From an uncultured Planctomycetaceae bacterium (GTDB lineage: Bacteria > Planctomycetota > Phycisphaerae > SM23-33): a DNA stretch of 64,000 nt. The stretch's first letter is position 1; each line of letters begins with the position of its first letter. The position numbers and the translations under genes were made by a program. This document shows, one piece after another, positions 832 through 63,525 of this stretch. Location of the stretch: assembly GCA_964427875.1 (NCBI GenBank), contig CAYRVX010000009.1:27600-91599 (forward strand). The letters are read 5' to 3'. The notes beneath the pieces are model-generated. The model saw nothing but the letters and a program-made list of their open reading frames with translations, did not search any database and was not told the origin of the DNA.

Positions 832-3480
832 CTACTTCCTCTTGCCCTTCTTCTTCGGGTGGTTGATCGCGGCCTGGGCGGCGGCGAGGCGGGCGACGGG
901 GACGCGGTAGGGCGAGCAGGAGACGTAGTCCAGGCCGACCATGTGGCAGAACTCGACGCTGCTGGGCTCGCCGCCGTGCTCGCCGCAGATGCCTATCTTG
1001 AGGTCCGGGCGTGTGGCCCGGCCCTTCTCGACGGCGATGCGAACCAGCTCGCCGACGCCGCGGCGGTCGAGCACCTGGAACGGGTCGTGGTCGTAGATGC
1101 CCAGCTCGACGTACTGCTTGAGGAACCGCCCGGCGTCGTCGCGGCTGAACCCGCAGCCCATCTGCGTCAGGTCGTTGGTGCCGAAGCTGAAGAACTCGGC
1201 CTCCTCGGCGACCTCGTCGGCGGTCAGGGCGCCGCGGGGCACCTCGATCATCGTGCCGATCTTCAGGTACGCCAGCCTGCGGCCTTTCTTGGCGGCGATC
1301 TCGTCGTAGACGTCCAGGACGATCTGCTTCTGGTGGGCCAGCTCCTTGACGTTGCCCACCAGTGGGATCATGATCTCCGGCTTGGCCCCGCGGACGGCGT
1401 AGGCCGCCTCGATGATCGCGCGGGCCTGGACGGCGGTGATCTCGGGATAGTAGATGCCCAGCCGGCAGCCGCGATGTCCGAGCATCGGGTTGAACTCGTG
1501 GAGGCTCTCGACCTTCTCCTTGATCTTTCGGGGCGAGACGCCCATGGCCTTTGCCATTTCGGCCTGCCCGGCTGCATCGTGCGGCACGAACTCGTGCAGC
1601 GGCGGGTCGAGGAAGCGGATGGTGGCCGGGCGGCCCTTCAGGGCCTTGAAGATGCCGATGAAGTCCTTTCGCTGGAGTGGCAGGAGCTCCTTGAGGGCCT
1701 TTCGGCGTCCGGCCTCGTCGTCGGCGAGGATCATCTTCCGCATGGAGACGATGCGCTTGCCCTCGAAGAACATGTGCTCGGTTCGGGTCAGGCCGATGCC
1801 CTCGGCGCCGAACCGGACGGCCACGGCCGTGTCGTGCGGCGTGTCCGCGTTGGTGCGGACGCCGAGCGTGCGGTGCTTGTCGGCGAGCTTCATGATCGTG
1901 CCGAACGGCCCGGTGAGCTCCGGATCGACGGTCTTGATCTGGCCGGCGTACACGGCGCCGATGGAGCCGTTGAGGCTGATCCAGTCGCCTTCCCTCAGCG
2001 TCTTGCCTCCGGCGGTGAGGGTCTTCTTCTTGTAGTCGATAGCGGCGTCCTCGCAGCCGGCGACGCAGCACTTGCCCATGCCTCGCGCGACGACGGCGGC
2101 GTGGCTGGTCATGCCGCCGCGGCTGGTGAGGATGCCCTTTGCCGCGTCCATTCCGCCGATGTCCTCGGGGCTCGTCTCGATGCGGACGAGGATGACGCGC
2201 TTGCCGACGTCGTGCCATTCCTCGGCCTCACGGGCGTTGAAGACGATCTGCCCCGTGGCCGCGCCGGGGCTGGCGGGAAGGCCCCTGGCGATCATCGGGG
2301 CGGCCTTCTCGCTCCTGGCGTCGAAGGTCGGGTGCAGCAACTGGTCCAGCGCCATGGCCTCGACGCGGCAGACGGCTTCCTTCTCCGTGATCAGGCCTTT
2401 CCTCATCATGTCCACGGCGCACTTGACGGCCGCGGCGGCCGTCCGCTTGCCCGTCCGCGTCTGGAGCATGAACAGCTCGCCCTGCTCGATCGTGAACTCC
2501 ACGTCCTGCATGTCGCGGTAGTGGTCCTCGAGCTGCTTGCGAATGGCCACGAGCTGCCTGTAGCACTTGCGGTCCACCTTGGCGAGCGTCGCGATGGGCT
2601 GGGGCGTGCGGATGCCGGCCACCACGTCCTCGCCCTGGGCGTTCATCAGGTACTCGCCGTAGAAGACGTTCGCCCCGGTGGCCGGGTCGCGCGTGAACGC
2701 CACGCCCGTGCCGGAAGTGGCGCCCATGTTCCCGAAGACCATGGTCTGGACGTTGACGGCCGTGCCGAGCAGGCCGCGAATGTCGTTCAACTGGCGGTAC
2801 TTGATCGCCCGCGGGTTGTTCCACGAGCCGAACACCGCGTCGATGGCCTCCTGGAGCTGCTGGCGGGCGTCCTGCGGGAAGCGCTTCCTGGACTTCTTAT
2901 AGACCTTCGCGTACCCGTCGATGACGGCCTTGAGCCCGTCCACGTCGAGGTCGGTGTCCAGCTTGACCTTCCTGGCCTTCTTGACCTTCTCCAGCGCGTG
3001 CTCGAAGTCCTCGTGCTCCATGCCGAGGACCACGTCGCCGAACATCTGCACCAGGCGTCGATACGCGTCCCAGACGAACCGCTCGTTGCCGGTCAGGTCG
3101 ATCATCGCCCGGAGCGTCTCGTCGTTGAGGCCGAGGTTCAGGACGGTGTCCATCATGCCGGGCATGGAGACGGCCGCCCCGGAGCGAACTGACATGAGCA
3201 GGGGGTTGGGTCCGCGGCCGAACGTCTTGCCCGTGAGCTTCTCCAGCTTCCTGATGTTCGCGTCGATCTGCGGGGCGATCTCCCTGGGGTACTTGCGCCC
3301 GAGCCTGTAGAACGCGTCGCACGTTTCGGTGGTGATGGTGAACCCCGGGGGCACGGGGATGCCCAGGGCGCTCATCTCCGCGAGGTTGGCGCCCTTGCCG
3401 CCCAGCAGCTCCTTCATGGCGGCCCGGCCCTCGGCCTTGCCGCCGCCGAAGAAATACACGTACTTCTTTGTCTTGGCCAT
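832..3480 (-). CDS. ppdK: pyruvate, phosphate dikinase
   Basis: 882 aa. N-terminus MAKTKKYVYFFGGG...GGKGANLAEM, PEP-utilising enzyme motifs, central His-domain motif GGMTSHAAVVARG, C-terminal TIM-barrel motifs. Confidence 0.95.
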   Translation of the reverse strand: MAKTKKYVYFFGGGKAEGRAAMKELLGGKGANLAEMSALGIPVPPGFTITTETCDAFYRLGRKYPREIAPQIDANIRKLEKLTGKTFGRGPNPLLMSVRSGAAVSMPGMMDTVLNLGLNDETLRAMIDLTGNERFVWDAYRRLVQMFGDVVLGMEHEDFEHALEKVKKARKVKLDTDLDVDGLKAVIDGYAKVYKKSRKRFPQDARQQLQEAIDAVFGSWNNPRAIKYRQLNDIRGLLGTAVNVQTMVFGNMGATSGTGVAFTRDPATGANVFYGEYLMNAQGEDVVAGIRTPQPIATLAKVDRKCYRQLVAIRKQLEDHYRDMQDVEFTIEQGELFMLQTRTGKRTAAAAVKCAVDMMRKGLITEKEAVCRVEAMALDQLLHPTFDARSEKAAPMIARGLPASPGAATGQIVFNAREAEEWHDVGKRVILVRIETSPEDIGGMDAAKGILTSRGGMTSHAAVVARGMGKCCVAGCEDAAIDYKKKTLTAGGKTLREGDWISLNGSIGAVYAGQIKTVDPELTGPFGTIMKLADKHRTLGVRTNADTPHDTAVAVRFGAEGIGLTRTEHMFFEGKRIVSMRKMILADDEAGRRKALKELLPLQRKDFIGIFKALKGRPATIRFLDPPLHEFVPHDAAGQAEMAKAMGVSPRKIKEKVESLHEFNPMLGHRGCRLGIYYPEITAVQARAIIEAAYAVRGAKPEIMIPLVGNVKELAHQKQIVLDVYDEIAAKKGRRLAYLKIGTMIEVPRGALTADEVAEEAEFFSFGTNDLTQMGCGFSRDDAGRFLKQYVELGIYDHDPFQVLDRRGVGELVRIAVEKGRATRPDLKIGICGEHGGEPSSVEFCHMVGLDYVSCSPYRVPVARLAAAQAAINHPKKKGKRK

Positions 3481-3757
3481 CGAGTTTCACTCCGCATGTC
3501 TGGGTTTACAGGGAACAACAGGGGATGGGAGTGTAGGCACAGCGGGCTGACGTGTCAACGGCTTTTGCGCGCCGAAGAAGCGCGCAGGGCGGCAAGGCCC
3601 GGCTGGCAAAGGGCGCTTCGCCGGCTGAGGTTCTCCAGCGACTCGACGTGCGGTATCGTCTGCTGCGGCGGATCAGCGTGCCTCGGCTGATACTCCGGCC
3701 TCACCAAGGCTCAGGGCTTACCTTTAACAAGCAGTTTCAGGCTCCTCTCACACTTTC

Positions 3758-3786
3758 AGTGTATCACCGAGGCCCACAGGAGTCAA
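3758..3786 (-). promoter_or_regulatory. sigma70-like promoter candidate upstream of ppdK (TTGACT, 17-nt spacer, TACACT on minus strand)
   Basis: Reverse complement of agtgta(3758-3763)...agtcaa(3781-3786). Lies in a relatively AT-rich 360-bp intergenic region. Would imply a ~270-nt leader. Confidence 0.2.
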
Positions 3787-3844
3787 CGCACAAATTGATA
3801 ATACTTGGGATAATCCTAATAGCCTGTATGCGGCGCTGGGAGGC

Positions 3845-5947
3845 TCAGCGCGGCTTGCCCGCGAGCTTGTGGCGTTCGGCCGCTTCCTTGGCGCAGATGA
3901 CTCGGCTGTGGATGGCGACGTGATCGAGCGTGCCGGCCCAGTCGCGGCTGTCTCGCCACTCGTCGCCGAACAGCAGGTGCTGGGCGGACCAGTTGCTGAA
4001 GTCCCCGCGGACCGCGCCGGCGTCGAGGACGCGCCGGCCGTTGAGGTAGCACACCAGCCGCCCCGGAGAGTAGCTGACGATCACGTGGTGCGTCTTGCCG
4101 GCCTCGAGCTTACAGAGCGTGCTCTCCGGGCGCATGCCGTTCTCGCCGGTCCGCGGCGTTCGCAGGCGCAGGATGAGCCGGTCTCGCTCCTGGCCGATCG
4201 TGAAGTTGCGGTGGTACGCGTCGGTGGAGAACGAGACGATCCGCGCCGGCCCGCCCTGGCGGACGTTCGCGGGCGTGATCCTCGCCTCGATGCTCAGTTG
4301 GTGGCTCTTGCGGCAGGCGCTCAGCAGCGGCTCATCGGCCCCCTGGGCGATCATCGCCCCGCCGGTCACGTCCATGGCGCCATTCGGGCTCATCTTGGCT
4401 TTACCTCGCGGCCGCACGCGGCAGTTGAAGACTACCGTGCCCTTGGGACCGGTTATCTGGTTGGTCGAACCCGCGCGCGGCCACAAGAAGGCCAGCGCAT
4501 CGCGGTTGCCCGGCCAGGCGCCGGTCATCTTCGGGGCGGGGGCGTCGTGGAGCTTGTCCGTCTCGGAGCTGCCCCTGACGGGCCCGGCGGGCTTATACGT
4601 CCGGGCCGCCGCGGTGCGGCCGCCAGGGCGAACGGACAGCACGACCATGTGCCCGTCGCGGTCCTTGCAGCAGATCAGCCCGTCGGAGAGGCACACGTGC
4701 GGATAGCACGTGCCGCGACAGATCCGCTCGACGCGGCCCAGCTCCGTGTACCGCCCCTGGCTCGGGCGGGCGTCGATGAGCACCAGCTTGCCGTTGCCCC
4801 AGACGATCACCTTCTGGTCGCTGGTGACGAGGCACGAGCCGTGGGAGAAGCTTCCCCCCCGCCAGAGGGTCCGGGCCGTGGCGAGGTCCAGGCACTTGAC
4901 CGCCCCGTCCACCGTGATGATCCGGTCCCCGTGGATCACCGGGCTGCACACCTTCGAGTGCTGGCGCGTGGTCCACTTCTGCCGGGCCCCGTTCATCGAG
5001 ATCTCGATCAGGCCGGTCCTGCTGACGTTGTAGTCCGACGTGAGCACGACGCGGCTGCCCGCGACGGCCGGCGTGGGGATGTTGTTTGCGAAGTCCGTCT
5101 GCCAGTGGAACGTCGCGACGGTCTTGCCTTCGTTGCCCTCATCGGCCCGCATGACGACGAGCCTGAACAAGGCCAGGTTGGCGATGCAGTCGATGCCGCC
5201 CACCTTCATGAGCAGGGGCCCGCCGGTGTGCCCGCCCGGCTCGCGAAACTCCGAGGCCCACCGCCGCCGGCCGGTCTTCTTCTCGAACGCCATCACCGTC
5301 CCGTCGCTGCTGGCCACCTCGACGATCACCAGGTCCCCGTGGATCAGCGGCGCGGAGGTGTGCCCGTAGTCGCGCCTTCCCGCCCCGGCGTCCGGGCGCT
5401 GGCGGATCTTGCAGACTTCGTGGAAGTTCTTGGCCCAGACGAGCCGCCCGCCGTTGCCGGTGTCCCAGCAGCGCAGGTCCCCGTCGATGCTCAGCGTGTA
5501 GAGCCGGCCCGTCTCCTTGTCGAACGTCGGGGTGGACGACGGCCCGCCGTAGGCGCCCGTATCGCCCGTGCGCAGTCGGCCCTGGTACCGGCAGGGATAC
5601 GTCTGCTTCCAGATCTCCCTGCCGCCGGCCGCGTCGAAACAGTACAGCGTGTCCGTGCCGCCGGGGCCGCGCCTGCCCCCGCGGGCATGCCAGCCCATCA
5701 CGTACAGCCGCCCGCCCACGATGATCGCCGACGTGCACCCCTTGCCGACGTTCCTCTCCCAGAGCTTCACGGGCGGCCAGCCGCCGGGGTGGCCGGAGCT
5801 TTCCAGCGCAACGTCGTCGCGGTTCGGCCCGCGCCACTGCGGCCAGTCGGCCCCCGCCGCGGGCCCCGCGACGCAGGCCGCCAGGAGGATGCAGGTCATC
5901 TTCGAGGTCAGGGCTTCCATTGATCGACCGGACGCTCTCATTGGCAC
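3845..5947 (-). CDS. secreted PQQ-like beta-propeller repeat protein with C-terminal LamG/concanavalin-like domain
   Basis: Signal peptide (MTCILLAACVAGPAAGA). Repeated motifs WPQWRG...GG.LYV...LYCFDAA.G..W (PQQ/BamB-like propeller blades). C-terminal region has laminin-G-like features. Start could be at 5920 or 5899 instead. Confidence 0.7.
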   Translation of the reverse strand: MPMRASGRSMEALTSKMTCILLAACVAGPAAGADWPQWRGPNRDDVALESSGHPGGWPPVKLWERNVGKGCTSAIIVGGRLYVMGWHARGGRRGPGGTDTLYCFDAAGGREIWKQTYPCRYQGRLRTGDTGAYGGPSSTPTFDKETGRLYTLSIDGDLRCWDTGNGGRLVWAKNFHEVCKIRQRPDAGAGRRDYGHTSAPLIHGDLVIVEVASSDGTVMAFEKKTGRRRWASEFREPGGHTGGPLLMKVGGIDCIANLALFRLVVMRADEGNEGKTVATFHWQTDFANNIPTPAVAGSRVVLTSDYNVSRTGLIEISMNGARQKWTTRQHSKVCSPVIHGDRIITVDGAVKCLDLATARTLWRGGSFSHGSCLVTSDQKVIVWGNGKLVLIDARPSQGRYTELGRVERICRGTCYPHVCLSDGLICCKDRDGHMVVLSVRPGGRTAAARTYKPAGPVRGSSETDKLHDAPAPKMTGAWPGNRDALAFLWPRAGSTNQITGPKGTVVFNCRVRPRGKAKMSPNGAMDVTGGAMIAQGADEPLLSACRKSHQLSIEARITPANVRQGGPARIVSFSTDAYHRNFTIGQERDRLILRLRTPRTGENGMRPESTLCKLEAGKTHHVIVSYSPGRLVCYLNGRRVLDAGAVRGDFSNWSAQHLLFGDEWRDSRDWAGTLDHVAIHSRVICAKEAAERHKLAGKPR

Positions 5948-6065
5948 GCCTTTCCCAGGACGCTCGTCCCGTGCGGCGAGGTGAAGCTACTGGATTGAAC
6001 CACGGTCACGGGAGACGGGCAACGGCGGGGAACTCGCCTTTTTCAGGCGAACGGTTCGCCCCGGA

Positions 6066-6262
6066 AGAACGCGGCGAGCAACCTGCCTGCCGGCAGGCAG
6101 GGCTCGCCCGCTAAACGCTCCGCGAGACCGACCTCAGCGGCGCCTGACGACGTCTCCCCCGTTTAGCGGCGGGGCTTGCCCCGCGCGTCTTCGAGTCTTC
6201 GAGTCGCCCCGCGCGCCTTCCTTGTAATCCCCCCGCGGCGCGATTACGATGCCAACGATGAT
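6066..6262. repeat. ~200-bp direct repeat, copy 1, carrying a REP doublet (REPIN) immediately upstream of the RAYT gene
   Basis: About 93% identical to 6887-7100. Contains inverted REP units gcccgctaaacg (about 6105-6117) and cgtttagcggcggg (about 6160-6174). Confidence 0.75.
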
Positions 6263-6845
6263 CCTCGCCTACCATTCCATCTTCAGCGCGTACGGGTTCT
6301 GGCTCCCCAACGACCCCCGCGGATCCTGGTCGGACTTCGTCCGCAGTTGGGAGCTCTTCCGCTTCGGCAAGGCAACGAAGGTTGATCTCAGGCGGTCGGT
6401 GGCACGCGCCGAGCACGACGTCGCCCTCCGTCTCCGCGCGAAGCGGAGCTTGCGCTATCCCCCGGTCGCCTTCACCGGCCCCCAGGCCCGCGCGGTCGGC
6501 CGGGGCTTCGCCGAGGCCGTGGGCGAAGCGAACTACGTCGTCCACGCATGCTCGGTCCTGCCGGAGCACGTGCATCTGGTGATCGCCCGCCACCGGCGCA
6601 GTATTCAGCGGATCGTCGGACACCTCAAGGCGAGGGCGACGCAGCACCTGACGGCCGAGGGCCTGCATCCACTGACGGAGCATGCACGAGGCGACGGCAC
6701 CCTCCCTTCTCCCTGGGCGCGGCGGGGATGGAACGTGTACCTGGACGATCCCAAGCACCTGCGAAACGCCGTGCGGTACGTGGAGGCCAATCCGATCAGG
6801 GAGGGAAACCCGAGGCAGCGCTGGAGCTTTGTTACGCCGCTGTGA
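6249..6845 (+). CDS. REP-associated tyrosine transposase (RAYT; IS200-like Y1 HuH transposase)
   Basis: 198 aa with HuH motif (EHVHLVI) and conserved Tyr region (NAVRYVEANP). N-terminus MPTMILAYHSIFSAYGFW is typical of the Y1_Tnp fold. Flanked by REP doublets. Confidence 0.8.
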   Translation: MPTMILAYHSIFSAYGFWLPNDPRGSWSDFVRSWELFRFGKATKVDLRRSVARAEHDVALRLRAKRSLRYPPVAFTGPQARAVGRGFAEAVGEANYVVHACSVLPEHVHLVIARHRRSIQRIVGHLKARATQHLTAEGLHPLTEHARGDGTLPSPWARRGWNVYLDDPKHLRNAVRYVEANPIREGNPRQRWSFVTPL

Positions 6846-6886
6846 TGGCGTTGGCGGGACGTTGGGGTTCGGGTGCGTCCTCCCGC

Positions 6887-7100
6887 GGGAAGAAACGCGG
6901 CGAGCAACCTGCCTGCCGGCAGGCAGGGCTCGCCCGCTAAACGCTCCGCGAGACCGACCTCAGCGGCGCCTGACGACGTCTCCCCCGTTTAGCGGCGGGG
7001 CTTGCCCCGCGCGCCTTCGCGTCTTCGAGTCTTCGAGTCGCCCCGCGCGCCTTCTTGTAATCCCGTCCCGGCGCCGTTACGATGCGAACCATGATCCTCT
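6887..7100. repeat. ~200-bp direct repeat, copy 2 (REPIN plus duplicated RAYT 5' end)
   Basis: Near-identical to 6066-6262. The repeat runs into a duplicated RAYT start (atgcgaaccatgatcctc versus atgccaacgatgatcctc). Confidence 0.75.
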
Positions 7101-7102
7101 CA

Positions 7103-8500
7103 ATGGAAAGGCAGTGTCTCTCTGTCTTCTGTATCTCGCTCGCATGGGTCTCCACCGCCGCCGCCGCGGCGCCCGAGACCCGACCGGCCCCGCCGCAGTG
7201 GGGCACGAGCAAGGCCGGAGTGCAGATATCCCTGTCCGTGCCGGGGCCGATCCGCACCGGCGGGAAGTTCGAGGCCCACGTGGCCGTGCGGAACGTCGGA
7301 TCGGCCGCGGTGGCCCTGCCGGCCGCCAAGGACGTCTTCGGCTGGCTGCTGCTCCTCTACAGCCGCGACAACGCGTACGTTACCGGGAAGGTCTTTCCCG
7401 CGGCGGAGCTGGCTCCGGGCAAGTGGCCGGGCGAACTGCCCGGCGGCGGGACGATCCGCCTCAAACCGACGGACCTCTCGGCCCTGAACGCATATTCCTA
7501 CGACAAGCGTCGGGCGGTTTACACCGCCTACCTGAAGCCCGAGAGCGGCGCGGCCCTTCCGGCGGCGGACGGCAAGCTCGCCGACAAGCTCTCGCCCGGC
7601 AGCGCCAGGGCGCGGTTCATGCTGTACGTCCCCCGCCCCAACGAAAGCCCCCTGCTGCTCAGCTCCAACGTGATCGAGCTGGAGATCGCCCCGCCGGACT
7701 TCTCCAAACTTTCGCCCGACGCGCAGAGGGAATTCGCCGCCCGCCTCCTCAAGAAGTTCGACAAGGACGCGTGGGCCGCCATGAATGCGCACGGCCAGGC
7801 CGTGGGGATAGGAGCGCCGATCGTGCCCTACCTGATCGAGGGCGTTCGGCAGCGCAGGCGGCCGGGCTACTCCCGGCTTTGGCTGGCAACGGCCCTGGCC
7901 GACATCCGCTGCGAGGCCTCGGCCGCCGAGCTGATCCGCCTGCTCGACGATCCGTCCGGCGGCGTGCGAAGCGTGGTGGGCTACCACGGGCCGAAGCAGC
8001 ACAGCGCCAAGCTCGACGCGGCCATCATCGACAAGATCTCCAGGGAGAAGAGCACCTCCACCGTCTCCTACACGCTGCTGGGCTTCATGGTATTTCGGAA
8101 GCGCGTCCCGGAGGAGCTGCTGGCCGTCAGCTTCGAGAGCGCCGACCCCCGCGCCCGCGCGACCTTCGCCGCGGCCCTCAAAGGCCGGGCGAGCGACTTC
8201 AACGTCTCGCGCCTGACCGCGCTGCTGGCCGACGAGAACGAGCGGGTGCGATCCGCCGCCGCCAAGGCCTTGGGCGCGATGAACCGGCCGAGCGCGCCGC
8301 TCATCGCCGCCCTCGTCCGCTCGCTCCAGGCGCCGGGCGAGCACGCCCGCAAGAGCATCGCCGACGCGCTCGGCCAACTCACCGACCGGAAGGCCCCCTA
8401 CGACCCCAAGGCCGACGAGGAAACCAGGCGGAAGGTCATCCAGGGCTGGAAGGACTGGTGGGCCGAGAAGGTCACCAAGGCAGCCAACGAGCGAAACTGA
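7103..8500 (+). CDS. secreted HEAT/PBS-lyase-like repeat protein
   Basis: Signal peptide (MERQCLSVFCISLAWVSTAAAAA). C-terminal HEAT-like repeats (DPSGGVRS..., ENERVRSAAAKALGAM...). The alternative in-frame start at 7082 (MRTMIL) comes from the duplicated RAYT start. Confidence 0.6.
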   Translation: MERQCLSVFCISLAWVSTAAAAAPETRPAPPQWGTSKAGVQISLSVPGPIRTGGKFEAHVAVRNVGSAAVALPAAKDVFGWLLLLYSRDNAYVTGKVFPAAELAPGKWPGELPGGGTIRLKPTDLSALNAYSYDKRRAVYTAYLKPESGAALPAADGKLADKLSPGSARARFMLYVPRPNESPLLLSSNVIELEIAPPDFSKLSPDAQREFAARLLKKFDKDAWAAMNAHGQAVGIGAPIVPYLIEGVRQRRRPGYSRLWLATALADIRCEASAAELIRLLDDPSGGVRSVVGYHGPKQHSAKLDAAIIDKISREKSTSTVSYTLLGFMVFRKRVPEELLAVSFESADPRARATFAAALKGRASDFNVSRLTALLADENERVRSAAAKALGAMNRPSAPLIAALVRSLQAPGEHARKSIADALGQLTDRKAPYDPKADEETRRKVIQGWKDWWAEKVTKAANERN

Positions 8501-10738: not shown

Positions 10739-10772
10739 TACGCTGCGCGCGGTGCCAAGGAGCCCCGTCGCC

Positions 10773-33413: not shown

Positions 33414-33473
33414 CCGACGTCCGCGGGCGAGGCGGTCAACCACTTGCCGGACGGTACGGAACGTGCGGGCCGA

Positions 33474-33546
33474 GGCCCGCCGCTAAACGACGCGCCCGAC
33501 GCATTCTTCGCTGCCGCGACGTCGGCAGGCTCGTTTAGCGGGCCAG
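33474..33546. repeat. REP doublet (REPIN): gcccgccgctaaacg ... cgtttagcgggcc
   Basis: Same REP core as the copies flanking the RAYT gene. Translated in-frame inside the 1095-aa ORF as AGPLNEPADVAAAKNASGASFSGG. Confidence 0.75.
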
Positions 33547-33559
33547 CTTGCTGGCCGCG

Positions 33560-34657
33560 TTTCTTCCGCCCATCCCTCACCGCCTTGGCCAGCAGCCTGA
33601 ACGCCTCGTTCTCCTTCTGGCGCCCGCGCGTCCCGCCGTCGTTCCAACTGACGATCAGGTCCAGCGACGGCACGATCGCCATCGCGCGAATGCCCCCGTG
33701 CCCGAACGCGCCGAAGGTGTCCGTCGGCGCATCGGGCCAATGGCGCTTGTTCTCGCGGTCCACGCCGTTGGTCCACCACAGCCAACTGTAGCTGCCCATG
33801 TGGTCGGTCTGGTTGTCGGGGATGTTCCGCGAGCCGATGGACCGCTGATGCGGGATCATGTCGGCCGCCTTGTTGCCGGCGCGCGGGACGGTGTTCGGCA
33901 GCGGCTTGCCGGCCGCCATCTTCGTGAACGTCGCGCCGATCAACTGCCTGCCCTTCCACCTGCCCCCGCGCAGGTACAGCAGGCCGAAGCGGCAGAAGTC
34001 GCGCGGGGAGATCCCCACCCGCCCGGGGCGGTTCTTCACGCCGAACGCCATCATCGTCGGCCGGTCCTCGCAGCCGATCGGGGCCGTCAGCAGCCGGCGA
34101 AAGACCTTCTCGTCCGCCGTCTCGTACGTCACGCCGTACACCTTCAGGAACAGCGCGTCCCAGAGGAGCGCCATCTGCCAGTCGTTGTAGGCGTAGGCGC
34201 TCCCGGGGCGCTCGATGAGCCCGTAGCAGGACGTCTGGTTGGCCAGGTGCCGGAAGGTGATCTCGCGGTCCTTGTGGCCGAGGGCGGCGTTGATCTTCGC
34301 CAGGCGCGGCTCGAACTTCACCGCTTTCTCATCCACGCCCGAGAGCTTTCCGTCCTCGACGGCCTTGAAGAGGAAGTGGCTGTAGAAGACCTTGGCGGCG
34401 GAGGCGACGTCTCGCCGCCGGCCGGCGTCGCCCCAGGTGTGGACCATGCAGCCGCCGCGAACGACGCAGCCGCGCCCGCCGACGAAGTCGCTGAAGGCCT
34501 TCAAGGCCGCCTGATCGAGCCCGGCCTCCTGCGGCGAGCGCCTCTGCCAGGTCCTGCCCGGGCACACCTCTTCGCCGAGCAGCGGAAATGGGCTCACGAG
34601 GACCACCCAGGCCGCGCCGAGCCGCCGCAGCCGACGAGAAAACGCTGGTCCGAACAT
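33560..34657 (-). CDS. secreted beta-lactamase-fold serine hydrolase (copy A)
   Basis: Signal-like N-terminus. S-x-x-K motif context (ASAAKVFYSHF), YAYNDW, GHGGIRAMAIVPSLDLIV. The 3' end is set at the REPIN; no stop codon occurs in frame until 31370. Confidence 0.5.
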
Positions 34658-48435: not shown

Positions 48436-48555
48436 GCTTCGGCCTCCTTCGTTGACGGCCAGGTGCGAGTGTCCGGTCGCGGTCATTGGCGTTGATTGAG
48501 ATTCTAACCGGAAACCGGCGGCGAGTCGATGGCGGTCTGGACGGGCAGAAGACGC

Positions 48556-48660
48556 GGCCGGCAAGCCGGCCCGCTAAACGCCCAACCGTGCGGAACACAT
48601 TTGGCGTCGGCTCCGCGAAGCGTTTAGCGGCGGGCCTTGGCCCGCGCGCTCGTCGAAGTT
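48556..48660. repeat. REP doublet (REPIN) in a divergent intergenic region
   Basis: cggccggcaagccggcccgctaaacgcc ... cgtttagcggcgggccttggcccgcgcgctcgtcgaag. The 28-nt left arm is identical to 63498-63525. Confidence 0.75.
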
Positions 48661-62624: not shown

Positions 62625-63520
62625 GGCCGGACGCCCGAATGAAAGCAGCGGTCCTTCTCAGCCTGCTCGTATGGACGGTCCCGCTCTCCCTGAGCTGCCG
62701 GAACGGCGGCGGGCGGACCGCGCCGCCGCCGGTATTCATCACGAAGACCGGCGTCGAGATGGTTTGCGTCCCGGGCGGGTGGTTCCAGATGGGCTCGGCC
62801 AGCGCCGGCGGCGACGAAGCCCCCGCCCACAGGGTCCGGGTGGATGCGTTCCTGATGGACAGGTATGAGGTCACGCAGGACCAGTTCCGCCGGCTCGAGA
62901 TGCCCGACCCGTCCCACTTCAAGGGCGCCCGCCGGCCCGTCGAGCACGCCACGTTCGCCGAGGTGGTCGAGTTCTGCAACGAGCGATCCGCGGCCGATGG
63001 GCTCCGGCCGTGCTACCGGCTCGACCCCGAAGGCGGCACGTGGACGTGCGACTTCGACGCGAGCGGCTACCGCCTGCCCACCGAGGCCGAGTGGGAGTAC
63101 GCCTGCCGGGCCGGAACCACGACGGACCGCTTCTTCGCCGCCGCCGGCGAGACCGCGCTGAAGCGATACGCCTGGTACGCAGCCAACTCCTCGAAGACGA
63201 CGCACCCCGTCGGCGGCAAGCAGCCCAACGCCTGGGGCCTGTATGACATGTACGGCAACGTGGCCGAGTGGTGCAACGACTGGTACGACCCGAACTACTA
63301 CAGGACCAGCCCCGCGAGGAACCCTCGCGGCCCGGCAAGGGCCATGCTCGTCGTCCTGCGCGGAGGCTCGTGGAGCTCCAGGCCGCATCGATGCCGTTCC
63401 GGCGCGCGGGCGGGCGAAGACCCCCGCTTCCACGACGCGTGCTTTCCGAAGGACACGACCGGCTTCCGCTGCGTCCGCAGGCCGCCGCGGGCGGACGCGG
63501 CCGGCAAGCCGGCCCGCTAA
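62621..63520 (+). CDS. formylglycine-generating-enzyme (FGE/SUMF1) family protein
   Basis: RLPTEAEWEYACRAGTTT ... NAWGLYDMYGNVAEWC ... RGGSW. Signal peptide from the second Met (62639). The last ~10 codons and the stop lie inside a REP unit. Confidence 0.8.
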   Translation: MRPDARMKAAVLLSLLVWTVPLSLSCRNGGGRTAPPPVFITKTGVEMVCVPGGWFQMGSASAGGDEAPAHRVRVDAFLMDRYEVTQDQFRRLEMPDPSHFKGARRPVEHATFAEVVEFCNERSAADGLRPCYRLDPEGGTWTCDFDASGYRLPTEAEWEYACRAGTTTDRFFAAAGETALKRYAWYAANSSKTTHPVGGKQPNAWGLYDMYGNVAEWCNDWYDPNYYRTSPARNPRGPARAMLVVLRGGSWSSRPHRCRSGARAGEDPRFHDACFPKDTTGFRCVRRPPRADAAGKPAR

Positions 63521-63525
63521 ACGCC
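63498..63525. repeat. REP singlet flanked by an 11-bp direct repeat
   Basis: gcggccggcaagccggcccgctaaacgcc. Flanked by gccgccgcggg at 63481-63491 and 63523-63533. Confidence 0.65.

Follow-up and report, generated by a model that had tools for sequence, protein, structure and literature searches.

Flanking REPINs and a promoter-like module shared by a RAYT gene and its HEAT-repeat neighbour in an uncultured planctomycete

Why should a transposase-like gene and the unrelated-looking gene downstream of it begin with almost the same 200 bp of DNA? The question is raised by a 64,000-nt stretch from an uncultured Planctomycetaceae bacterium (GenBank assembly GCA_964427875.1, contig CAYRVX010000009.1, positions 27,600–91,599), which in its entirety we call the window. 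Here a gene for a RAYT, a Y1/HUH transposase-like protein, lies between two direct repeats that contain repetitive extragenic palindromic (REP) sequences, and the second repeat runs into the start of a HEAT-repeat gene. An earlier note on this DNA explained the arrangement by the copying of the RAYT promoter and leader onto a different gene. The account that we consider probable, with clear room for doubt, is that the locus is a vertically inherited REPtron, in which a domesticated Y1/HUH RAYT has a cognate REPIN (two inverted REPs) on each side, obtained its promoter from the HEAT gene, and has flanks that have since undergone gene conversion.

Pairwise alignment of the two repeats, designated A and A′, gave 92.0% identity over 213 aligned columns (E = 3.8e-85), in agreement with the note's description of flanking repeats of about 200 bp that include a promoter-like region and the first codons. 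The similarity extends well past the REP cores and reaches the start codons of both genes, as the alignment proposed in the note was meant to establish. A third copy of the ~205-bp block was not found in the 64-kb window. Each copy has the same internal order: a minus-strand REP, a spacer, a plus-strand REP, octamers (GTCTTCGA) with a duplicated half-REP, and then TTGTAA-17-TACGAT-7-ATGATCCTC, the last being the start shared by the two genes (6258–6266 in A and 7091–7099 in A′). The features of the locus are as follows.

6063–6266, plus strand: repeat copy A, consisting of a REPIN, a promoter-like module and the first 3 RAYT codons
6063–6117, minus strand: left REP of A, with head CGTTTAGCGG at 6108–6117, a hairpin GCGAGC..GCTCGC interrupted by a palindrome, and tail GGAAGAACGCG
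6082–6101, no strand: 20-nt perfect palindrome CCTGCCTGCCGGCAGGCAGG at the apex of the left REP hairpin of A
6160–6192, plus strand: right REP of A, CGTTTAGCGGCGGGGCTTGCCCCGCGCGTCTTC
6193–6220, plus strand: octamer repeats (GTCTTCGA) from the REP tail and a duplicated 3′ half-REP, with a copy number that varies among relatives
6222–6250, plus strand: RAYT promoter-like module, −35 TTGTAA at 6222–6227, 17-nt spacer, −10 TACGAT at 6245–6250, ATG 7 nt downstream
6258–6845, plus strand: RAYT gene, 195 aa, Y1/HUH transposase-like, at the start chosen by the gene caller (P0156)
6846–6887, plus strand: unique spacer from the RAYT stop codon to A′
6888–7099, plus strand: repeat copy A′, consisting of a REPIN, a promoter-like module and the first 3 HEAT codons
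7055–7083, plus strand: HEAT promoter-like module, −35 TTGTAA at 7055–7060, −10 TACGAT at 7078–7083, 100% conserved in the related contigs L098–L100
7091–8500, plus strand: HEAT-repeat gene, 469 aa, Pfam HEAT_2, called from 7091 (P0121)

What separates the two copies is 7 substitutions, all within 6232–6257, and three indels of 1, 8 and 1 nt. Divergence is therefore distributed in two layers, since the REPIN part (6063–6220, 158 nt) has indels and not a single A/A′ substitution, and all 7 substitutions lie in the promoter part (6221–6257, 37 nt), where the −35 and −10 hexamers and the ATG are untouched. The module, which can also be written as CTTGTAAT..GCGCCG..TACGAT, places the start codon, ATG or GTG, exactly 7 nt past TAnnnT, and this −35/−10/start geometry was kept in 12 of the 12 orthologous or paralogous modules that we collected. 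A 7-nt spacing between TAnnnT and the start is also enriched at the long open reading frames (ORFs) of the window, with 6 cases versus 0–3 at other spacings, and an exact TAnnnT-N7 test was positive in 16 of 80 GTDB family loci. From the conservation and enrichment of this geometry we infer that the transcripts are leaderless, with probable starts at 6258 and 7091; there are hints that leaderless genes may be common in the window organism. A third long ORF with leaderless-type geometry (TTGGCG-17-TACGCT-7-GTG) was seen at 10752 on the plus strand.

These starts differ from those given in the note. Both repeat copies contain an upstream in-frame ATG (6249 and 7082), formed by the final two bases of the −10-like hexamer and a G. 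The note took the first of these as the beginning of RAYT (MPTMIL); the start codons are indeed shared, but RAYT begins at 6258, because nearly all aligned homologues begin at MILAYH. An exact look-up of the 198-aa ORF gave no match and the 195-aa form (P0156) is present in the collection, a result of gene callers beginning RAYT at 6258. The in-frame fusion of the repeat to the HEAT gene also stands in part. Positions 7082, 7091 and 7103 all lie in one open frame with the HEAT ORF and the gene does start inside the repeat, but at 7091 and not at 7082 or 7103: position 7103 is ACG in L098–L100 (94–95% nt identity) and has no Met in L003, P0121 is called at 7091, and HEAT N-termini are colinear from the 7091 ATG across all lineages. 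The resulting M-x-x-M N-termini were considered as shared coding sequence and rejected, being a by-product of the TAnnAT-G-N6-ATG geometry.

The identification of the bracketed gene as a RAYT with a HuH motif and a catalytic Tyr was upheld. In 25 aligned homologues, H107-V-H109 (198-aa ORF numbering) is invariant or nearly so and Y177-x3-N181-P182 near the C-terminus is invariant, and the sole PDB sequence match is E. coli TnpA_REP (4ER8), to residues 81–136 of which the Tyr region aligns (E = 5.8e-4). The protein scores under the curated cut-offs of NCBIfam REP_Tyr_transpos (49.5 bits vs 80; E = 3.9e-13) and Pfam Y1_Tnp (20.2 vs 23), and is a member of a divergent subfamily. Its 4,837 database relatives (E ≤ 0.001), of ~197 aa, are mostly from Planctomycetota, many of them named RayT by the Joint Genome Institute (JGI); this planctomycete family is probably under-annotated, because the query falls below both thresholds. 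Some metagenome-assembled genomes (MAGs) hold two copies of a ~197-aa RAYT-like protein. Looked at as a possible mobile insertion sequence (IS), the gene was found in a single syntenic position across the lineages, and the closest further copy, in L008, has just 78% DNA identity. The order PQQ-RAYT-HEAT is kept in L004, L007 and L098–L100, and PQQ-RAYT in L001. Two relatives have altered RAYT genes: in L002 (P0001, ~1779–1787) HVY replaces HVH in the HUH motif, and in L096 (152–738), which is L007-like, the ORF is split by a frameshift. Both RAYTs are probably inactive to judge from their sequences, and a sequencing or assembly error is possible in each.

Comparison of the window with L098, L099, L100 and L002 separates A-type from A′-type states and points to a recent exchange between the flanks. 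The REPIN spacer is AGCGGCGCC in its A-type form and AACGGCACC or AAGGGCACC in the A′-type form of these relatives; their A′-type REPIN is without the 36-nt octamer/half-REP block, and none of them has the palindrome. The window A′ has A-type states together with the palindrome and the 36-nt block, all inside one tract, and keeps the A′-type markers at its edges (an extra A at 6893 and a 1-nt deletion at 7053). Beyond the tract, the whole promoter part of the window A′ is 100% identical to A′ of L098–L100. A-type states inside and A′-type states on both edges argue for a recent A-to-A′ conversion specific to the window lineage, delimited as follows.

6894–7053 at most, 6908–7050 at least, plus strand: recent A→A′ conversion tract, from comparison with L098, L099, L100 and L002; 0 substitutions

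The palindrome CCTGCCTGCCGGCAGGCAGG is present in both window copies (6082–6101 and 6908–6927) and absent from the corresponding REP of L001, L002 and L098–L100, and so from relatives as close as 94–97% identity, and from the other REPs of the window. It may have originated by hairpin-templated extension or as a nested mini-element. In a second lineage, represented by L001 and L003, the L003 copy that precedes HEAT has A-type sequence as far as the ATG, with 88% identity to the window A and 71% to the window A′; the tract in this lineage is independent of that in the window and longer. The triplet GCC in the promoter spacer, at first taken as a marker specific to L001/L003 and common to its A and A′, was withdrawn, as A of L098 has GCC too. 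Sequence has repeatedly flowed from the RAYT flank to the HEAT flank, superimposed on an earlier duplication whose probable direction was HEAT to RAYT.

The history of the site was followed in orthologous loci. L001 is ~89% identical to the window and syntenic over window positions 835–6848 (PPDK-PQQ-RAYT). L098, L099 and L100, at 94–95% nt identity, have the full A-RAYT-A′-HEAT layout, and L004 (~80%) and L007 (~77%) have PQQ-RAYT-REPIN-HEAT with REPINs on both sides and promoter parts that are just loosely alike. RAYT-less loci were found as well. In L089 and L090 (HEAT protein 61% and 55% identical) PQQ and HEAT are divergent neighbours ~200–230 bp apart, with no RAYT and no REP head in the spacer between them; L092 (HEAT protein 64% identical) is RAYT-less with another upstream neighbour, and has a promoter-like element ~45 nt upstream and a Shine-Dalgarno-like leader. 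In all three the HEAT gene stands behind a −35/−10 of the same type, with leaderless geometry in L089 and L090. RAYT-bearing loci form one clade in a neighbour-joining tree of HEAT proteins and RAYT-less loci fall in two other clades, on which basis a single insertion of RAYT into the PQQ-HEAT spacer would be most parsimonious. A second metagenome scan, with the HEAT protein as query, added L096 only. The source species was not included in the GTDB genome scan, where the best RAYT match was 73%.

The origin of the shared promoter part was addressed with the RAYT-less loci. The HEAT gene of L089 is preceded by cTTGTAATgccaccgcagcgccgcTACCATgcacgccATG, which over 51 ungapped nt is 63–71% identical to the RAYT-side modules of the window, L001 and L008, and 67% identical to the module of the window A′. 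By comparison, 16 unrelated leaderless-type promoters from other RAYT loci averaged 35–40%, with a maximum of 47% against L089, and random 51-mers from the window averaged 28%. The module is absent from RAYT relatives at ≤73% identity. Homology between the RAYT module and the HEAT promoter of a RAYT-less locus leads us to propose, with moderate confidence, that the promoter was duplicated from the HEAT gene to RAYT, opposite to the direction given in the earlier note. The argument that MIL is native to the RAYT family, and that A′ must hence derive from RAYT, was rejected, because RAYT-less HEAT genes start ATGAT or ATGGT behind a like promoter.

Taken together, the following sequence of events is proposed. 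A single insertion would have placed RAYT in the spacer that separates a PQQ-propeller gene from the gene for a secreted HEAT protein, in an ancestor of a small uncultured Planctomycetota clade. Each REPIN came to abut what resembles a sigma-70 promoter, TTGTAA-17-TACGAT, with a start codon 7 nt further on, at 6258 for RAYT and 7091 for HEAT. RAYT and HEAT would probably be expressed as leaderless mRNAs from these near-identical promoters and would hence be co-regulated. The REPIN-plus-promoter blocks are best regarded as paralogues, the promoter part being most likely HEAT's own and duplicated before RAYT. In the window lineage the blocks have since exchanged sequence by intrachromosomal gene conversion, and in the most recent tract, of about 145–160 nt, the upstream REPIN overwrote the downstream one; the promoter part is an older layer under purifying selection.

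Several points weigh against this account. TTGTAA-17-TACGAT agrees with the E. coli consensus at no more than 8 of its 12 positions, and a promoter scan with a threshold of 9/12 does not call it; the comparison sequences are all metagenome contigs or MAGs. The HEAT-to-RAYT direction depends mainly on a single RAYT-less locus, L089, and the HEAT modules of L090 and L004 are just 47–59% identical to the others. L008, with the same promoter and a 77% identical RAYT at another locus, fits a RAYT-native promoter equally well unless it results from a secondary relocation. Finally, RAYT itself could have catalysed the REPIN replacement seen as the recent tract, in place of a RecA-type conversion.

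The competing explanation that survives best, which we nevertheless regard as doubtful, is a single copying of the RAYT promoter, leader and first codons onto HEAT, replacing its native 5′ end and rewiring its expression or translation start. The documented conversions do run from A to A′, in both the window and the L001/L003 lineage, and to that extent the RAYT-to-HEAT copying described in the note took place. Between −10 and ATG, moreover, GCACGYC is common to the HEAT genes of L004, L089 and L090 (MHAM/MHVM N-termini), and the window and L003 HEAT genes have the RAYT-like GCGAACC and GCCAACG there; in L008, too, the promoter goes with RAYT, away from any HEAT gene. Set against this is the resemblance of the RAYT modules to the HEAT promoter of RAYT-less L089, far over that of the controls, which makes the module likely to be HEAT-native. 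The oldest RAYT-bearing lineages already have the REPIN part on each side, and the two layers of divergence indicate several events and not one. A large rewiring of HEAT expression is also unlikely: the −35 and −10 hexamers and the 7 nt that lead to the ATG do not differ from those of RAYT-less loci, and A′ is 100% conserved among the relatives with 94–95% nt identity. RAYT-less orthologues start ATGAT/ATGGT at the same distance from a like −10, and functionally little has therefore been rewired.

A bolder combination of ideas is less probable still, and we think it unlikely to be correct as a whole. RAYT would be wired into the host through its neighbour's promoter, with conversion keeping RAYT and the secreted HEAT protein co-expressed; or else the promoter-RAYT-REP unit would relocate whole, as hinted by L008. 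Whole-unit relocation, if true, would run counter to the idea that RAYTs never move on their own. In L008 (5756–6760) the RAYT is 77% identical, has the same promoter type and lies at an unrelated locus beside a 37-aa sulfatase N-terminus fragment; a right REP, degenerate through three C-to-T changes, precedes it and a complete REPIN follows it. This contig is from the same metagenome as L006, which represents the window organism, and could be a second copy from the same genome or come from another species.

Tandem duplication of REPIN, promoter and RAYT, followed by deletion of the second RAYT from codon 4 to HEAT and a chance in-frame fusion, strikes us as improbable. An A-B-A′ arrangement is the expected leftover of tandem duplication with internal deletion, and the microhomology ATGATC is common to the native RAYT and HEAT starts. 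This explanation is contradicted by the RAYT-less HEAT orthologues, which already start TAC[GC]AT-N7-ATG(A/G)T with the same geometry, by the colinearity of HEAT N-termini in all lineages, which implies no loss of the HEAT 5′ end, and by the REPIN-HEAT junctions of L004 and L007, where the promoter parts are dissimilar.

There is very little to recommend a mobile block, that is, a REPIN derivative or miniature inverted-repeat transposable element of ~200 bp with an outward promoter, spread by RAYT before many genes. Other REPINs of this family are scattered through the window, a right REP and promoter are found at the other locus in L008, and Pseudomonas REPIN clusters that duplicate flanking sequence have been described (PMC3116915). 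However, the window has two copies of the promoter part only, its other REPINs being without it, and the A′ promoter part is orthologously fixed before the HEAT gene. A metagenome scan with a degenerate promoter pattern gave 0 matches and was uninformative, as the collection evidently lacks even the known contigs.

An assembly artefact can be set aside almost entirely: assemblers can be misled by repeats and the L002 contig stops exactly where A′ would be expected to begin, but A and A′ differ by their 7 substitutions and 3 indels, three contigs of relatives at 94–95% nt identity span the locus, and three independent assemblies of the window organism span A-RAYT-A′-HEAT or RAYT-A′-HEAT at 99.8–99.9% identity, the arrangement being present in JGI contigs from other samples (L005, 99.9%; L006, 99.8%).

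We return to the REPtron account and to the REPs on which it draws. The REP doublet that the note placed upstream of RAYT is a genuine REPIN, two inverted REPs with head CGTTTAGCGG. Nine copies of this head were counted in the window, where 0.06 would be expected, each beside a GC-rich hairpin with a CTTG-type loop, and the stems vary between copies with compensatory changes. Eight of the 9 heads form head-to-head pairs ~100 nt long with differing spacers (6063–6192, 6888–7018, 33461–33568 and 48548–48656), giving four doublets and one singlet, which flank the RAYT gene and occupy three other sites. The REPIN flanking RAYT folds as expected for single-stranded DNA (z = −2.85), and an Rfam scan of 5850–7250 yielded a chance-level match only. 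The family members away from the RAYT locus are listed below.

33461–33568, no strand: REPIN of the same family, with the same head and other stems
48548–48656, no strand: REPIN of the same family
63494–63523, minus strand: REP singlet of the same family

Window REPs combine the invariant head CGTTTAGCGG and a tail CGCGTYYTTC with diverse stems (GGCGGGGC, GGGCCAGC, GGCGGGCC, GGGCCGGC and GGGCGAGC), each with a matching partner arm. The octamer tract (GTCTTCGA) between the right REP and the −35 was observed at 6193–6220 and 7010–7053 in the window and at 6040–6100 in L001; there are 2–3 copies in the window, 5–6 in L001 and none in A′ of L003 and L098–L100, and in L004 (9170–9225) an 18-mer repeated three times takes their place. 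This REP-tail stretch is a slippage-prone tract of variable repeat number adjoining the promoter. A different rearrangement was noted in the ~89% identical relative, where the A′ REPIN is split just after its left REP hairpin (L001 6731–6945, L003 1–190) by a segment of at least 10 kb with ABC-transporter genes. The edges of the segment are inverted copies of at least 113 nt that hold tandem repeats of the AGCTTTCAGCT type; RAYT and HEAT are on separate contigs, and the right REP and promoter stay with the HEAT gene.

The gene upstream of A completes the neighbourhood.

3845–5920, minus strand: PQQ beta-propeller/LamG gene, upstream neighbour, Pfam PQQ_2 and Laminin_G_3

Its start at 5920 is presumed from the gene call in L005. 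Where relatives have no RAYT, this gene and the HEAT gene form a divergent pair; synteny was seen in L001, L004, L089 and L090. The N-terminus of the HEAT protein has the appearance of a signal peptide. Between the PQQ start and A, at 6024–6038 on the plus strand, a terminator-like hairpin is followed by TTTTT on a strand without an upstream gene; the scan gave one such hairpin vs 0.9 expected, which is chance level.

How unusual the locus is was judged from 70 GTDB family loci with enough flanking sequence. REP or REPIN repeats of 13–159 nt (the longer ones ~90–160 nt), direct and/or inverted, were present on both sides in 54 of the 70, and the upstream copy always ended 9–60 nt or more before the start codon; among these surveyed relatives, a flank repeat crosses the start codon (−190 to +8) in the window lineage only. 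The flanking duplication, presented in the note as special, is so in part: a REPIN on each side is the ancestral norm, as in L004, L007 and the 54 surveyed loci, but the ~45–75 bp beyond the REPIN are not. RAYT expression and regulation are largely unknown, a question on which the locus bears, and whether REPs drive RAYT expression has been stated as unknown (PMC3733652). The related loci form a natural series, from an empty site through RAYT with REPINs on both sides to RAYT and a neighbour with one promoter-and-start module, and they include a datable conversion tract of ~150 nt between flanking REPINs. They are a useful small case for the integration of a domesticated transposase into a host locus and for the upkeep of identity between its flanking REPINs. 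The planctomycete RAYT-like family is very large (>4,800 database relatives) and goes unrecognised at the Pfam and NCBIfam thresholds.

RAYT genes bracketed by REPs are the known REPtron arrangement, of the E. coli yafM type (PMC6006769, PMC3733652). Like these, the window has a Y1/HUH transposase-like gene with REP hairpins on either side, and hairpins of the same kind are scattered elsewhere in the genome; the gene stays in a single extragenic space with conserved neighbours and shows no evident mobility of its own. In contrast to them, the head is CGTTTAGCGG and not GTAG, the protein belongs to a ~195-aa planctomycete subfamily below the Pfam and NCBIfam cut-offs, and the ~205-bp flanks run past the REPIN, through the promoter-like module and into both start codons. 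RAYTs have been described as single-copy, vertically inherited genes in a fixed extragenic space, flanked by their own REPINs (bioRxiv 10.1101/2021.07.10.451892), and in P. fluorescens REPIN units are duplicated along with flanking sequence (Bertels & Rainey 2011, PMC3116915). The window shares with the Pseudomonas REPIN-RAYT systems the inverted REP doublets with a variable spacer, a RAYT flanked by REPINs of its own population, the same gene neighbours in relatives and vertical inheritance; near-identical flank-REPIN-flank units occur there too (PMC3116915 Fig. S7). It differs in that its units are separated by the RAYT gene itself, that the duplicated flank is a functional-looking promoter and start codon, and that its REP stems are heterogeneous around an invariant head, whereas Pseudomonas REPIN populations are near-identical.

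With the IS200/IS605 family the locus has in common the catalytic fold family (HUH and Tyr) and subterminal hairpins beside the gene. Unlike those elements, it shows no sign of multiple near-identical full copies and no tnpB, its flanks are REPIN direct repeats instead of distinct left and right ends, and it is syntenic across lineages at 76–95% identity.

Concerted evolution by intrachromosomal gene conversion is known from tufA/tufB and rRNA operons, for example. As there, paralogues within the genome are more alike than orthologues between genomes, and the tract is bounded by diagnostic sites. In comparison the window tract, at about 150 nt, is very short; the two direct copies, with a distance of 826 bp, enclose a gene that would be lost if they recombined with each other, and a RAYT-catalysed mechanism is possible. 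The known picture of REP/RAYT systems is left unchanged by these comparisons: the window holds a genuine but ordinary REP/RAYT locus whose lineage-specific twist is a promoter-and-start module common to RAYT and its neighbour, with a similarity that is kept by short conversion tracts.

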